A DNA stretch of 64,000 bases from an uncultured Nitrososphaerales archaeon (GTDB lineage: Archaea > Thermoproteota > Nitrososphaeria > Nitrososphaerales > Nitrososphaeraceae), in the NCBI GenBank assembly GCA_963695855.1, contig CAVOHZ010000010.1, positions 224,001 through 288,000 on the forward strand, given 5' to 3'. The number at the start of each line of letters is the position of its first letter. Within the stretch, counting starts at the first letter, position 1. Below, piece by piece: positions 1,110-64,000 of the stretch. The position numbers and the translations under genes are program-made. The notes beneath the pieces are model-generated. The model searched no databases. It saw only the letters and a program-made list of their open reading frames with translations, and was not told where the DNA came from.

Positions 1110-3149
1110 TGGTTTGTTGCATGATTCACTACTGCTAATCTATTTAGCTAACCTGTTATATTCATATTATGTGTTAAACTGGAGACAATATAATCAATCT
1201 CTTGTTAAGCGTGGAGAAATTATGCTTGGATTTGATATTATAGATAATTGGGATAATGAATTGAAAGAAATGAACAAAGGTAAAGTTGGAGAACCATATC
1301 ACTATCCCAACTCATTTCTCTTATTACTTGGATATGCAAGAGTGTATTTTCATCTTCCATTCAGGCAGACTGAAGGTATAGTAAGAGCTCATGCTGAAAA
1401 TAAAATCCCATCAATTCCTGACTATAGTACTATAGATAGGAGAATAAACAAACTGTGGTTTGTTGCATAACTCGTTTAACCAATCGTTCTCATTATTATA
1501 TAATTGATAATTATGTAACAGTTATACTTTGAAACCAGTTATACAACGATGCTTTCAACATTATCTCTCTTATCATGTTCTCTAACCTGATAGCAGTAAC
1601 ATATTCACCAAACATTCTCTTCATAGAGGAAAAAACAGATTCTACCATCCATCTTTGTCCATAGCGTACACTATCTTTCCATTCTTGCAAATCATTCTTC
1701 TGCATTTTCACCATCTTGTTTCTAAGGTAATGATTGGTCTTTCTGCATCTAGAATTCTTTCTTACCTTTATTGCTGGTTGTATGCCTTTAAATGATAGAA
1801 ACTGAAAGATCTTGTTGCTATCATAGGAACCATCCATGATAGCAGTATCTATTACCTTATTCTGTTTTATTGCTATATAATCAACCAATTTTGGAAGTAC
1901 TTTTACATCATGTACTTCTTCACTAGTAACATCTAATGATAGAATTCTCTTCTTTTTTATATCGACTGCTAAAGGTATCTTTAGATATCCTCTTTTTACA
2001 TTCCACTTGTGTCTAATCCATTCACCCCCTCTTAGATACCTTTATACCGGTAGAATCAATTGCAATAACAAAATTATCATCATGCAAGTTAGATTTGGTT
2101 ATATCATCAGAAATCTTGATATCCAGTCTATTTATTCTTCTGCTAATGTTACTATAATCTGGAATTGATGGCAAAGTGTTTGAAGCATGTTCTCTAACTA
2201 CTCCTTCAGTTTGTCTGTAAGGTAAGTGAAAATATGCTCTCATGTATCCCAATAACTTGACAAATGAATCTGGATATACGAATTTCCTACCTTCCTTTTC
2301 CTTATTCATCTTCTCTAGTTCAGTATTCCAGTTATCTATAACATCAAAATCCAGTAATACCTCACCACGTTTAACAAGAGATTCGTTGTAATTTCTCCAG
2401 TTCACATAATATGACTAGAATTGGTTAGCTAAATGTGTTGAAAAGAACAAGTTGTGCAACAAGGCACAAACTGGATATTCATGTTAACAACAACAAATTA
2501 GGAGGTAATGATGTTATTATAGCAATTGATTCTACAGGAATAAAGATAACAAATAGAGGAGAGTGGATGCGTCATAAGTGGCACTGTAAAAGTAGGAAAG
2601 GATACCTCAAGATTCATGTAGCAGTAGATATAAGCGGTAGAAAAAAGAATGAGAAGAAAGCAAAGATTCTATCTCTAAACGTTACTACAGAAAAAGTACA
2701 TGATTCAAAAGTATTACCTATACTGGTACATGATATAGTCAGAAAACAGAATATCGATGTAAATACTGTGATAGCAGATGGTTCATACGATAACAACAAG
2801 ATATTCCAATTTCTTTCATTCAACAATATTAAACCAGCAATAAAGGTAAGAAAGAATGCTAGAATCAGAAATGACAATCACTATAAAAGAAATCTTGCAG
2901 CAGTGGAACAGAAAACTGATTTTAATAAATGGAAGAATAGCGTTAGCTATGGCAAGAGATGGGTTGTAGAATCTGTTTTTTCCTCTATGAAGAGAATGTT
3001 TGGTGAATATGTTACTGCTATCAGGTTAGAGAACATGATAAAAGAGATAATGTTGAAAGCATCATTATACAATTTGTTTATATCCACAACATAAAAGACT
3101 ACAACCAGAGAATTATTATCAATAAATTAATGAATCATGCAACAGAGCA
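1110..3149 (+). mobile_element. IS5-family element, transposase interrupted by a related IS
   Basis: Imperfect TIRs tggtttgttgcatgattca / tgaatcatgcaacagagca; 8-bp TSD cttcttaa (1102-1109, 3150-3157); DDE motifs IDSTG, ADGSYD, RWVVES. Confidence 0.92.
1456..2466 (-). mobile_element. IS5-family element nested in the outer IS5, transposase frameshifted near 2030
   Basis: TIRs tggtttgttgcataac / gttgtgcaacaaggca; TSD (a)caaactg on both sides; ORFs 2022-2405 and 1511-1888 are the two halves of one transposase. Confidence 0.92.
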
Positions 3150-4022
3150 CTTCTTAATTTCAGTGGAATGGAACCGATAAAAGCATTGATATATGCTGCT
3201 ATAATAAATGGAGTAATTTCTATTCCTATACTAGTTATCATAATGAAAATATCAAATGATAAAAAATTACTTGGTCAAAATGTAAATGGAAAAATTTCTA
3301 ATACTATTGGTGTCATAACTATAATTATAATGACAATTCCAGTTATTTTTATGATATTAACATCAATTTAATTATATTCTGGAATTTCTTCGATTGTCTT
3401 CAAATCATCTAGATATTTGGAATATTATTGAAAAAGATATTTGGAATATTATTGAAAACAAGACATTCGCATTCTCCCTTTTCTGGCAAAATAATATCTT
3501 CTGTAATATCCTAATTTGGTTTTCTTATGTTATCAGAGAGGAACCAAGATATTCCTTTCCACATTTTTTAAAATTATACACTAAAATTTTTTTGTGAAGT
3601 CTACCTATATTTCCCAAGAATAAAGGTGTTACTCCTAGGCTGGATTTTGATTCTTCATATTCTGTTATATATGCAAAAGCATAACCTCCTGCACCTAATA
3701 GCTTCTTCGAAATCTTCACTTCTGTGCAAATGTATTAACTATTCATAAATAATAAATTGTAAGATTAACCTTTAAGTGAATAATTATCCAAATACGAGAT
3801 AGTAATAGAAAATTTACACAAAAGATTTTGTTATGACTTCTGATGACAGTTTTAATAAAGTCATAATACTTGCTCAATATTTCGATAATTCACTGTTGTG
3901 CACTTTAAATAATTTTTTTATCTTTTATTTTAATCATTAAAAAATTACTTACCAGAAGTTATTACCATTAGTTGAATAAGTTATTCTAGAATCAAAGAAA
4001 AAAAATATTTAAGAGGAAAAAT

Positions 4023-42632: not shown

Positions 42633-43171
42633 TATGAAGGGTAATGATTTAAAAGAAGAGTATCTTTTACTTTTTATATTTATAACTGCTTTTGTTATCA
42701 TGTTATTGAACATAATAATTAGACAGACAATGATAAAATAATAATATATTTGTTTGATATTGTTAATAAATCTGATAATAAATAGGCTATGTCAATTCCT
42801 CGATTGATATTTAATTAAGAATGATAAGATTGGTTGTTTGTATGACACAAGGAATAGAAGATTCAAAACAAGACTATCAGTAAGAAAGAATTTCTATATG
42901 TGAGATAGATTATTTGATATGTTTCTAATTGACGCTGTATATATCTCTTCCTTTCATTAACTGTCTTTATAGAATTAATAATAAGATTTTCTCTTTTAAT
43001 ATAGTAAAAAGAATTTCTACAATTTATCAATTAGCAAATTTCTTGATAGTCGATCTTGAAAAAGATATTAGCGTTCTACTAGATGCGATAATGGAAGGAC
43101 GGGCTCTGTAGGTGAAATGTTCGACAGAGCTAACATTCAAGAAGAAAGCCACTACCAATACTCTTGCAAAT

Positions 43172-44200
43172 ATGTATGCGGCATTAGATTTAGGACAGAA
43201 AAACATTCAGGCAGTATTGAAAAATAAAGATGGTAAGATTATAAAGGAAAATAAAATACAGCGTAATACCAAAACAATACTAGAATTTCTTGATAATAGT
43301 AACAAGAATCATAATAATATTGATATTGTAATGGAGTCTGGTTACAACTATCAATATCTATATGATCTTTTACAAGATGAAGGTTATAATGTAAAAGTAG
43401 CACATCCACTAATGGTCAAGGCAATAGCATATGCTAAAGTCAAGACAGATAAAGTAGATGCTAGAATATTAGCAGATCTACTAAGAATGGATATGATACC
43501 AGAATGTTATATACCTAATAAAGATATAAGAAATTTACGAGATCTAGTTAGACGCAGATACTATTTTGTCAGTATTCGAACAATGTTCAAAAACAAAGCA
43601 CATGTTGAGATGAGTAAAAGATGGTTAGATGCTAATGTGACTAATAATATAACAACAACAATGATTAAAAATGATCCATTTTCTAAAAAAGGAAAATGTC
43701 ATTTACGTTCACTGGGAATACATGCATTAGATGATTGCCTTGATACCATAGATTTTCTAGATAGAAAAATAAAAGAGTTGGATACAGAAATAAAGAAATT
43801 GGCAATAGAAGATAAATACTCTAAACATCTTATGACAATTCCAGGTATATCTTACTATGCAGCTCTTCTAATATCAAGCGAGATAGCAGATATTAACAGG
43901 TTTCCAGACTATGAACATCTGTGTTCTTATGCTAGATTAGTACCTGGTACATATCAATCTGGAAATACATCATTCTCAAAAACAGACAAAAAACAAGGGA
44001 GCAAAATGCTAAACTGGATTATGGTACAGTGTACTCATACACATGTACGTTATTGCCAATCATCGATAACAGTACATTACAACAAGATAAAGAATAGAAA
44101 GAGAAATAACAAAATTGCTATAATTGCAGCAGCAAGAAAATTAATGCGTGTGATATATGTTATGCTAAAGGAAGATCGTCCCTTTAGACTGGATGAATAA
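43172..44200 (+). CDS. IS110-family DEDD recombinase
   Basis: LDLG, MESG, KTDKVDA, TIPGI, YQSG, AAARKL; likely start at MYAALD. Confidence 0.95.
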   Translation: MYAALDLGQKNIQAVLKNKDGKIIKENKIQRNTKTILEFLDNSNKNHNNIDIVMESGYNYQYLYDLLQDEGYNVKVAHPLMVKAIAYAKVKTDKVDARILADLLRMDMIPECYIPNKDIRNLRDLVRRRYYFVSIRTMFKNKAHVEMSKRWLDANVTNNITTTMIKNDPFSKKGKCHLRSLGIHALDDCLDTIDFLDRKIKELDTEIKKLAIEDKYSKHLMTIPGISYYAALLISSEIADINRFPDYEHLCSYARLVPGTYQSGNTSFSKTDKKQGSKMLNWIMVQCTHTHVRYCQSSITVHYNKIKNRKRNNKIAIIAAARKLMRVIYVMLKEDRPFRLDE

Positions 44201-44210
44201 TAATATAGTA

Positions 44211-44350
44211 TAGGACCTCTTGGTTTCTTGCATCGTCATATTGTTATTATTATATGATAAGTATGATGGATGCCATCTGTAGGTTAGGTCTGGCTACTAC
44301 TAGCGCAAAGCCACGGTGCACTATTGGTGCGTATGGGAGAATGCTATTAT
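44211..44350 (+). ncRNA. Predicted bridge/seek RNA
   Basis: Stem gacct/aggtc encloses guides tggtttct and tctgtag around an inner hairpin; the second stem-loop carries atgggag matching the element end. Boundaries approximate. Confidence 0.78.
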
Positions 44351-44432
44351 TCATCAGTTAATCATATTAGGAACGAGTATTATATGAACATGGGAGAAAC
44401 CATCATAGCTAGCAACATTCTACCATTAATTA

Positions 44433-45344
44433 TTGAACAAACAACAATCAAAATATGTTAGATTAGCAGATCAACTATTACGTATTCTCAAACATTGCAG
44501 AATTCCATTATATTTGCATAGAAAGAGCAACCACATTTACACAGTATGGCAACACATAGTACTTGTTACAATAAGAAGACAGTATGAAGGTAAGAGTTAT
44601 CGAATGTTTACAGACTGGCTTGTTGAAGCATACTATTTGAGATTGTTTTTACAACTATCCAAAATACCACATTATACAACATTACAGAAATTCACAGATA
44701 GAATCAATGTAGTGATGCTTGGAAAGATAATCTCATCTTTTATCTTATTCACAAGAACAAGACGCATATTTACTGGCATAGATTTGACTGGATTCAAAAT
44801 AACACATGCATCAGAGTACTATACTAGCAGAGCAAAACTACGAAGGAAGAAATATGCTAAATTGTCAATTGGCGCAGATGTATTACAACAAATCGTCTGT
44901 TCTATAAAGATAAGGCGAGCTCCAACAAGACATGATAACATAGATTTTAGACCAGTGACAACAAGAATATCAAAAATAAAACCATTATCGGTAGTTGTTG
45001 CAGATAAAGCATATGATAGTGAGGATAATCATGTACTAGTTAGAGAGAAACTAAACGGATTCAGTGTTATACCATCAAGATATGAAAAAGATGTACCAAT
45101 ATGGAAAACTCGTGGCAAATACAGAAAAGAAATGAAACGTGGCTATTCAAAGATTCTGTACAATCAACGTAACAAAGATGAAACTATTGTATTAGTCATA
45201 AAAAGATTGTTTGGAGAACATATATCATCCAGATTAATACGAATGCAGAACAGAGAATTGACTTTCAGATGTATTACATACAATCTTCATAGGATGCTAA
45301 ATTTAATTATTATTAAATGGATTCTACAGAGCCGAAGGACGTAG
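44433..45344 (+). CDS. IS5-family transposase
   Basis: IDLTGF, ADKAYDSE, YNQRNKDET motifs. Confidence 0.9.
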   Translation: MNKQQSKYVRLADQLLRILKHCRIPLYLHRKSNHIYTVWQHIVLVTIRRQYEGKSYRMFTDWLVEAYYLRLFLQLSKIPHYTTLQKFTDRINVVMLGKIISSFILFTRTRRIFTGIDLTGFKITHASEYYTSRAKLRRKKYAKLSIGADVLQQIVCSIKIRRAPTRHDNIDFRPVTTRISKIKPLSVVVADKAYDSEDNHVLVREKLNGFSVIPSRYEKDVPIWKTRGKYRKEMKRGYSKILYNQRNKDETIVLVIKRLFGEHISSRLIRMQNRELTFRCITYNLHRMLNLIIIKWILQSRRT

Positions 45345-63140: not shown

Positions 63141-63364
63141 TTTTTGTAAATTATTCTTTATTGTTGTAACAAGAGACAAAGATGTTGATTGGTTCCATAC
63201 GATAAAAAAATGACTATCTCTTGGTTAATTAAATGATATTAGACGCCTTCAAAATATTGGGCATTTCATTTAATGTAAACAGATACATATTGTATAAAAT
63301 TAGAAGTGCCATAGTAGCCTAACTGCAGCGATTTGAATTTGTCATATACGGTGCCTTGTTGAAT

Positions 63365-64000
63365 ACATGTAAAAGTCTTTTCCTGTTATCTATTCTCTTA
63401 TCCAACTGGCTAACCCCTTGTTGTGCGTGACCTGTCTTACTAGGATAAGGTCTTGCTTGTTGAATGGGGATATGTGTAAGCTGCTGTATATGTGAGCCAT
63501 AAAGAGCTCTGATAGATGTTTGCAGCTTTGTCTGGCTAGTTGGTTGGTTGGTTGGTATACTGATACTAGTATCATAATAAAAAAAAGGAGGTGAAAAAGA
63601 GAATAGAAGAAAAAATAATAGAATCAAGAAAAGATGATAGTTACTATATTGCGGTAGACATTGGAAAGAAAAACTGTGTTGTATGTATAACAGATAAGGA
63701 TGGTTCCATAATAGAAGAAACAAAATATGATAATACTCTACAAGAAGCAGAAAGATTTGCTTCTCATTTGGATAAAAAGTATAGCAACAGAAAATGTCAT
63801 GCTGTTTGTGAATCAACAGCGAATATGTGGTTAAAGACATACGAAGCATTTGAGAAATATGGTATAGATGTTAAACTGGCTAATCCTCTGAAGACCAAGG
63901 CAATAGCAGAAGCAAGGATAAAAACAGATAAACTAGATGCTAGAATATTAGCACATTTACTACGATCTAATTTGATTGCAGAATCATATATTGCTCCAGA
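63365..64000 (+). mobile_element. IS110-family element with 5' non-coding end; recombinase from GTG 63591 runs off the window
   Basis: IAVDIGK, VCEST, ANP, KTDKLDARILA; GGAG directly before the start. Confidence 0.9.
63402..63543 (+). ncRNA. Predicted bridge RNA
   Basis: Outer stem ccaactggct/ggctagttgg; two arms (cccc/gggg and aagctgc/gcagctt), each with an internal loop; guide cttgttgaat equals the left flank 63355-63364. Confidence 0.75.

Follow-up and report, generated by a model that had tools for sequence, protein, structure and literature searches.

The stretch of DNA analysed (hereafter, the window) comprises 64,000 nucleotides and corresponds to G000:C10:224001-288000. The right edge of the window is occupied by the left 639 bp of an IS110-family element (positions 63362..64000, plus strand), the remaining 823 bp of which lie past the window end. 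Using the genome sequence beyond the window, the bounds of the element were determined from its two full copies and from empty sites, and its length was found to be 1462 bp (C10:287362-288823, copy A). The second copy (copy B) is inverted and located at C10:289831-291292. It has zero mismatches to copy A within the element, and the three mismatches revealed by the alignment of both copies are all in the flanks. The two full copies lie about 1 kb apart in opposite orientations, one in each terminal repeat of a single IS5 copy; a third copy, 86% identical and truncated, was found on contig 8. The non-coding ends of the element are 229 nt (left, RNA-carrying) and 117 nt (right) long. A 12-bp subterminal inverted repeat, ATGTAAAAGTCT, is located near the left end (63367..63378, plus strand), and its partner, AGACTTTTACAT, is separated from the right end by 3 bp. 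Taking TG as part of the element, the left extension, TGAATAC, has 7 bp; the right extension, AGA, has 3 bp.

Next to the left non-coding end, the element contains a gene encoding a DEDD transposase with a GTG start codon. The first 136 of its 371 codons are in the window (63591..64000, plus strand), and the frame continues beyond it and is intact in copies A and B. Pfam analysis of the full 371-aa protein revealed the domains DEDD_Tnp_IS110 (3.1e-27) and Transposase_20 (1.4e-24), and the NCBIfam model NF033542, 'IS110 family RNA-guided transposase', was matched with 250.5 bits at a cut-off of 140. The protein was aligned to the IS621 recombinase structure 8wt6 (E 3.4e-12, 49.7 bits), and the residues D23, E74, D113, D116 and S280 fell on the IS621 motifs IDTAK, IEATG, KTDTVDA and ESGSS. 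The catalytic residues of the IS621 recombinase, namely D, E, D, D and a Ser of the C-terminal domain, are named in PMC11208158. The transposases of ISEc45 (23.9% identity, 90 bits) and IS4321 (22% identity, 74 bits, E 1e-11) gave weak matches to that of the element. A tblastn search against plasmids found identities of 20-36%, the top match being a haloarchaeal plasmid copy with 36.1%. By its DEDD_Tnp_IS110 and Transposase_20 domains, its catalytic residues and its structured guide RNA, the element is a member of the IS110 family in the broad sense.

The element is inserted in a terminal inverted repeat of an IS5-family element. The left half of the target, TGCCTTGT (63352..63359, plus strand), is the outer tip of the disrupted repeat, and the left copy of the core dinucleotide TG follows it (63360..63361, plus strand); the insertion point is 8 bp inside the repeat. 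The right copy of TG is at window-equivalent positions 64824-64825, where the sequence reads ...CTTTTACATAGA, TG, CCCAACTCATTTTGCCTAACACATTTAGC and then enters the IS5-family transposase gene. With the element in parentheses, the junctions of copy A are GGTGCCTTGT-TG-(AATACATG...ACATAGA)-TG-CCCAACTC and those of copy B are CTAGTTTGT-TG-(...)-TG-CATAACTCG. Of the 37 IS5-like termini listed in the genome, most uninterrupted ones read TGCCTTGT-TG-CACAACTYGTTC. The target is CCTTGT-TG-CACAAC, and the uninterrupted termini elsewhere, mostly TGCCTTGT-TG-CACAAC, bear out the first-pass annotation of this DNA, which had placed the insertion in an IS5-type repeat. That annotation had also pointed out that the flank TGCCTTGTTG recurs at the other end of the window; it is indeed found on the minus strand at 2466-2457, in an uninterrupted IS5-like terminus, where it is followed by CACAACTTGTTC. 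The complete unoccupied target TGCCTTGT-TG-CACAAC extends over 2451..2466 of the minus strand and belongs to the terminus of another IS5-like copy.

TG was assigned as the core since it is the only sequence common to the empty site and both junctions. The empty sites and both junctions leave no place for a core AT, which had been proposed before, and this candidate was rejected. Accordingly, the right junction predicted from the window, TGATAG-AT-AACAA, was correct in ATAGAT and in the presence of an IS5-family gene after it, and incorrect in the core and in the register of the right flank; the actual junction is ACATAGA-TG-CCCAAC, with C(A/C)CAAC as the right flank. The opposite outcome, a right end unlike the prediction with no insertion sequence after it, was not what the genome sequence past the window contained. 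At the right junctions of 13 relatives, ACATAGA is followed by TG in 11 and by AG in the other two. These two, L029 and L031, have TG at the left junction, as would be expected if the donor and target cores differ at the first base.

The IS5-family element of approximately 1 kb between the two IS110 copies contains a 253-codon transposase frame (NF033579, 231.4 bits; Pfam DDE_Tnp_1). In the region C10:288880-289000, beyond the window, the match of this sandwiched frame to its profile (289 positions) does not begin until position 48, and an in-frame TAG precedes it closely; the gene may consist of two frames or be broken. No direct repeat representing a target-site duplication of the IS5-like element was evident beside its outer tips, the exact ends being approximate. 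The sequence CCTTGTTGCACAAC occurs in 17 exact copies in the genome against 0.009 expected from composition. No IS110 copy was found beside any of these 17 sites among the listed IS5-like termini, and the three occupied sites in the genome are variant repeats. The empty exact targets fit low or past activity of the element.

Left flanks reading TGC-N-N-TGTTG were found in 13 of 17 cases. An IS5-family transposase match was located within about 250 nt past the right end in 8 of the 13 copies with a readable right flank (A, B, L011, L012, L028, L029, L030 and L032, from several genomes), and the same query found none beside the right end in L013, L031, L034, L036 and L041. Another IS110 element is present in the window at 43102-44576 (C10:267102-268576). 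Its protein is 35% identical, and it has three identical genomic copies with differing left flanks. This element seems to be located at the end of a repeated element, since its right side adjoins a repeat that occurs at about eight places, some of them without IS110. The suggestion of the first-pass annotation that targeting of one insertion sequence by another recurs in this genome is upheld for the lineage studied by these IS5-family neighbours and agrees with the repeat beside the other IS110 element, as a behaviour that is already documented in bacteria.

In order to find relatives, the N-terminal part of the protein was searched against 101 genomes of the family, and matches at E <= 1e-20 were found in 16 of them, G000 included. 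A scan of contigs gave 19 loci. Among genomes sampled from the class, 15 of 151 matched at E <= 0.001 (a count made with stricter filters that includes G000 and the unpublished G230), all of them in two families; none of the 67 genomes that represented the remaining ten families of the class gave a match. Two short contigs in a Gemmatimonadales bin, L035 and L044, carry the archaeal element at 89-91% protein identity and are probably mis-binned. A second IS110 lineage is present in G000 in five copies, some of them frameshifted (C10:929537, C8:48616, C8:375077, C10:168715 and C8:490327), with a protein identity of about 41%. It has similar upstream non-coding sequence, and its relatives elsewhere match the RNA model described next.

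Sixteen 5' ends of the relatives were aligned well, and their consensus consists of an outer stem and two arms; a covariance model (R1) was built from them. The structured core of the putative bridge RNA occupies 63400..63544 of the plus strand according to the RNAalifold consensus, and R1 scores it at 173.1 bits. The outer stem pairs 63402-63410 with 63535-63543, arm 1 extends over 63414-63469 and arm 2 over 63479-63527, all on the plus strand. In the consensus of the 16 sequences, the unpaired part of arm 1 comprises 11 nt in the 5' strand and 14 alignment columns, equal to 13 nt, in the 3' strand. An outer stem with two looped arms had been drawn previously, and the same shape was obtained when 63362-63590 was folded alone. 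The elements marked in it, ttgttgt at 63418-63424, tgtat at 63485-63489, tgatagat at 63510-63517 and the two copies of CTTGTTGAAT, all lie where that annotation had put them. A (TTGG)n run at 63539-63556, just past the outer stem, is longer in copies A and B than in all 15 aligned relatives.

The repeated 10-mer and the two-arm fold might also be due to chance or to an ordinary 5' UTR, with the protein alone choosing the target. CTTGTTGAAT is found twice in the window (63355-63364 and 63456-63465) against a chance expectation of 0.32, and its repetition alone is weakly significant, since 4 of 100 window shuffles give two or more matches. The energy of the single-sequence fold is ordinary (z = -1.47), with 16 of 200 shuffles folding as well or better, and Rfam analysis of 63200-63700 identified no family, the best E-value being 0.085, far under the gathering score. 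The relatives point the other way. In an alignment of 30 homologous sequences, which was fitted to the covariance model and so leans towards the structure, 95.2% of the pairing cells were compatible with pairing; shuffled alignments gave 79.1%, and the observed value was reached by 0 of 500. In the same 30 sequences, changes on both sides with pairing kept were found at 20 of 26 base pairs, slid controls reaching at most 46.6%, and compensatory changes are present in all five helices. R1 also detects the same RNA upstream of transposases with only 39-53% identity, both in Nitrosopumilus-type genomes and in the second lineage, which is also found in G000. Together with the covariation of the loops and the flanks across lineages with unrelated targets (see below), this leaves the chance explanation with next to no probability. 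Degenerate remnants of the RNA were found at C10:895850-895992, C10:1289811-1289921 and C6:12631-12750, with R1 scores of 61.5, 30.2 and 29.4 bits; no transposase was found beside these three using the protein of the element as a query.

Arm 1 contains sequences corresponding to both halves of the target. The putative right-target guide, GUUGUGCG (63420..63427, plus strand), is located on the 5' side of the arm and complements the top strand TG-CACAAC, the first core base forming a T.G wobble. The putative left-target guide is on the 3' side (63456..63465, plus strand) and has the sense of the left flank and the core: CUUGU and UG at 63456-63462, followed by AAU at 63463-63465. The first-pass annotation had taken ttgttgt as the guide on the 5' side. 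The region was the right one, and the true guide GUUGUGCG is shifted by 2 nt, into what the single-sequence fold draws as a stem. The 10-nt identity between the left flank and the loop, on which that annotation was based, turned out to be composite: 7 nt are the left-target guide with the core and the last three (AAU) correspond to the element's own first bases. The identity is 10 nt rather than 7 because this extension also matches the beginning of the element.

Comparison of the relatives revealed that the left flank is identical to the 3' side of arm 1 in different elements, namely CTTGT-TG/CUUGUUG in copy A, TGTGT-TG/UGUGUUG in L011, TCTGT-TG/UCUGUUG in L012 and L029 and TTTGT-TG/UUUGUUG in L028, L031, L035 and L038. 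The right flank corresponds, as reverse complement, to an 8-nt stretch on the 5' side of arm 1, with a single base between this stretch and the inner stem. The pairs of guide and flank are GUUGUGCG/TG-CACAAC for the canonical repeat, GUUGCGCG/TG-CGCAAC in L030, AUCAUGCA/TG-CATGAT in L012 and GUUAUGCA/TG-CATAGC in L011. Covariation of loops and flanks was seen in both of the ammonia-oxidising archaeal families that gave matches, and elements with unrelated targets behave in the same way. In L040, the left guide ACUUCUGAA equals the left flank ACTTC-TG-AA, and the reverse complement of the right guide TGGGAAGA equals the right flank TG-GGAAGA (6/6). In L022, GGCUCUGAC and TGTTAACT fit the left flank GGCTC-TG-AC and the right flank TG-TTAACT, the right one with 6/6. 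What appeared to be the first bases of the second G000 lineage really belong to the target, since every copy is located after GGCTC-TG and the relatives have the guide GGCUCUGAC. The right flank is matched at 5/6 positions in L037 and 4/6 in L042, and the fits in L029 (5/8) and L034 (4/8) are poor. The Nitrosopumilus relative L037 (2250-2350 and about 3600-3700) is inserted exactly between (TTG)n and (TGTGGT)n microsatellites, and its guides match both. The occupied sites in G000 themselves pair with the right-target guide at 6/8 Watson-Crick positions in copy A (7 with wobble) and 6/8 in copy B (8 with wobble); the canonical site fits better.

Permutation of guides and flanks was used to evaluate these matches. 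Right-flank positions were matched in 59 of 72 cases (12 elements, six positions each) against 43.0 +/- 3.5 after permutation, with 0 of 20000 permutations as high. For the left flank, 45 of 51 positions were matched (17 elements, three variable positions) against 36.9 +/- 2.1, with 3 of 20000 as high. L033 was left out as it represents the same locus as L011, and the significance of both tests is overstated, since they ignore relatedness among the elements.

The guides of arm 1 could alternatively be read in the order known for IS621, with CCUUGUUG on the 5' side as the left-target guide and the right-target guide on the 3' side. In copy A, CCUUGUUG (63416-63423) equals the left flank with the core, CCTTGT-TG, at 8/8 positions, and IS621 and ISEc21, which likewise have an upstream RNA, carry the left-target guide on the 5' side in the available text of PMC11208160 and PMC11187229. 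This match is a by-product of the nearly palindromic target (TTGTTG / CAACAA). Where the target is different, the two orders can be told apart: the 5' side AUCAUGCA of L012 fits TG-CATGAT while the left flank reads GCTCTGT, the 5' side UCUUCCCA of L040 fits TG-GGAAGA, and the 3' side tracks the left flank in 17 elements. The IS621 guide order was rejected, as the 5' side of the relatives tracks the right flank and not the left one, and we regard it as highly improbable for this element.

Arm 2 is related to the ends of the element itself in a similar manner. The putative right-donor guide, UGUAUAUG (63485..63492, plus strand), is located on the 5' side. Its UGUAU is complementary to the ATACA found at the left end of the element, and both core positions form wobble pairs only. 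The putative left-donor guide, AUAGA and UG (63512..63518, plus strand), is located on the 3' side and has the sense of the right end (...ACATAGA-TG) with the core. The pair UGUAU/ATACA of the element's lineage is replaced by UGUC/GACA in the G055 lineage. L040 and L042 carry GUGUUCG, which is complementary to TG-AACAC with a T.G wobble at the first position of the core, and the second lineage has the guide AUGGAUG with the right end ...CATGGA-TG. The right-donor guide pairs over only 4-5 nt in two lineages. Directly after the core, the 3' guide of arm 1 continues with AA in elements that themselves begin with AA and with AC in those that begin with AC; half-matches are present in L039 and in the second RNA of L043. 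Handshake guides are described for IS621 (PMC11208158), and the AAU after the core in arm 1 can be viewed as acting like one. The 3-nt extension of arm 2 (UUU) did not match the target.

The domains, the structure of the RNA and the covariation of the guides and flanks agree with the first-pass annotation in that this is an IS110 element with a readable two-arm bridge RNA. Added to the observed boundaries and empty sites and to the covariation within the RNA, they make it very probable that we are dealing with an RNA-guided IS110-family element with a readable bridge (seek) RNA, inserted at a TG core into an IS5 inverted repeat. According to this model, the 229-nt upstream end would encode a bridge RNA, presumably expressed, in which each arm consists of a stem, an internal loop and a stem-loop. 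Arm 1 would read the target, its 5' side complementing the core and the right half and its 3' side having the sense of the left half and the core. Once strands have been exchanged, the AA(U) behind the arm 1 guide may base-pair with the beginning of the donor, if the exchange proceeds in this order. Arm 2 would read the joined ends of the element in a putative circular intermediate, with UGUAUAUG against TG-AATACA and AUAGA-UG corresponding to the right end with the core. A TATA-like sequence, TTTTACATA, in the right subterminal repeat could, speculatively, give rise to a promoter once the ends are joined in the circle. The element would have entered the terminal inverted repeat of the IS5-family element by recombination at the TG core. 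A second insertion into the other repeat would have produced the identical inverted copy 1 kb off and split both IS5 ends. The second copy is inverted because the target repeat itself is inverted.

A less favourable view sees in the element a dead relic, with guides that reflect a past specificity and two copies that result from duplication of the locus or gene conversion. The 17 unoccupied exact targets, the truncated third copy and the existence of degenerate RNA remnants are in line with it, and so is the lack of transcript evidence for the RNA. One DNA run and three metatranscriptome runs were compared, all as contigs, and none of the 24 listed runs was evident pure-culture RNA. The joint of the right and left ends expected in a circle was not seen in the contigs of these four runs. 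The metatranscriptome contigs match only the transposase gene of relatives, mostly at less than 95% similarity, and none spans positions 58-290 of the compared stretch, which makes them uninformative on expression. On the other hand, copies A and B have intact 371-codon frames and are mutually identical, which points to recent events. In addition, the copies occupy corresponding positions in the two inverted repeats, one in each, and are oriented as expected, which is in keeping with two site- and orientation-specific insertions. The relic is considered unlikely, and the guided element may still be active.

The known mechanism is unchanged by this element. Its value is that bridge-RNA guides could be read from raw archaeal sequence, with a reading that predicts the unseen right junction, and that natural archaeal pairs of guide and target with clean covariation are added. 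In addition, it provides an archaeal example in which one insertion sequence inactivates both ends of another. The upstream RNA combined with ends and guide order of the IS1111 type, for which no description was found in the available text, bears on the kinship of the two IS110 subgroups. The number of archaeal IS110 recombinases was put at 662 in a study of IS110 evolution (10.1101/2024.06.21.599552), the main text of which contains neither 'Nitroso' nor 'Thaumarch'. In the literature on IS110 and Thaumarchaeota and on bridge RNA and archaea or IS1111, no description of this clade was found in the available text; archaeal elements of this sort may already be included in the tables that supplement PMC11208160 and PMC11187229.

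Insertion into the inverted repeats of other elements is known for bacterial IS4321 and IS5075 (Tn21 family) and IS1383 (IS1384), according to references in the available text of PMC11208160. As with these, insertion is into the terminal inverted repeat of a different transposable element and has a fixed orientation, so that both repeats are open to attack, in inverted orientation. It differs from them in its host, an ammonia-oxidising archaeon, and in its victim, an IS5-family element.

A comparison with IS621 (Durrant et al. 2024, PMC11208160; Hiraizumi et al. 2024, PMC11208158), based on the available text, revealed the same DEDD and Ser recombinase, an RNA located upstream in the left end, two internal-loop arms with the target arm before the donor arm, a 2-nt core in every guide and a handshake-like 2-nt extension matching non-cognate DNA. 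Unlike IS621, the element has the reversed guide order in each loop (top-strand complement on the 5' side, bottom-strand complement on the 3' side), a core TG instead of CT, 12-bp subterminal repeats, an outer stem around both arms, an archaeal host and low protein similarity. It thus lacks the features of the narrow, IS621-like IS110 group, in which the guide order is opposite in both arms and repeats are absent or 2-3 bp long.

The IS1111-type elements, as far as the available text of Siddiquee et al. 2024 (PMC11187229) describes them, have subterminal repeats of 11-13 bp with extensions of 7 and 3 bp, and their non-coding region usually lies downstream, ISMtsp17 being an upstream exception. 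Their seekRNAs have the top-strand complement first, and IS110-type RNAs are the opposite. Like ISEc11, ISKpn4 and ISPa11, the element has subterminal repeats (12 bp), a 7-bp left and a 3-bp right extension, this guide order and specificity for both site and orientation; unlike them, it has its long non-coding region upstream of the transposase gene, not downstream. By the criteria of that paper, the element combines IS1111-type ends and guide order with an upstream RNA, a combination that is unusual, not unprecedented. Read on the opposite DNA strand, the layout would be that of IS621 with the cassette of RNA and transposase inverted relative to the crossover site. These characteristics allow us to propose, tentatively and at somewhat less than even probability, that the elements form a distinct clade, seen among the sampled genomes only in the two ammonia-oxidising archaeal families with matches, in which IS1111-type ends and guide order are mixed with an IS621-like upstream RNA and an outer stem, that this clade could represent an intermediate stage of the relocation that has been proposed for the bridge RNA, from one end of the element to the other, and that one of its lineages is specialised on IS5 inverted repeats.
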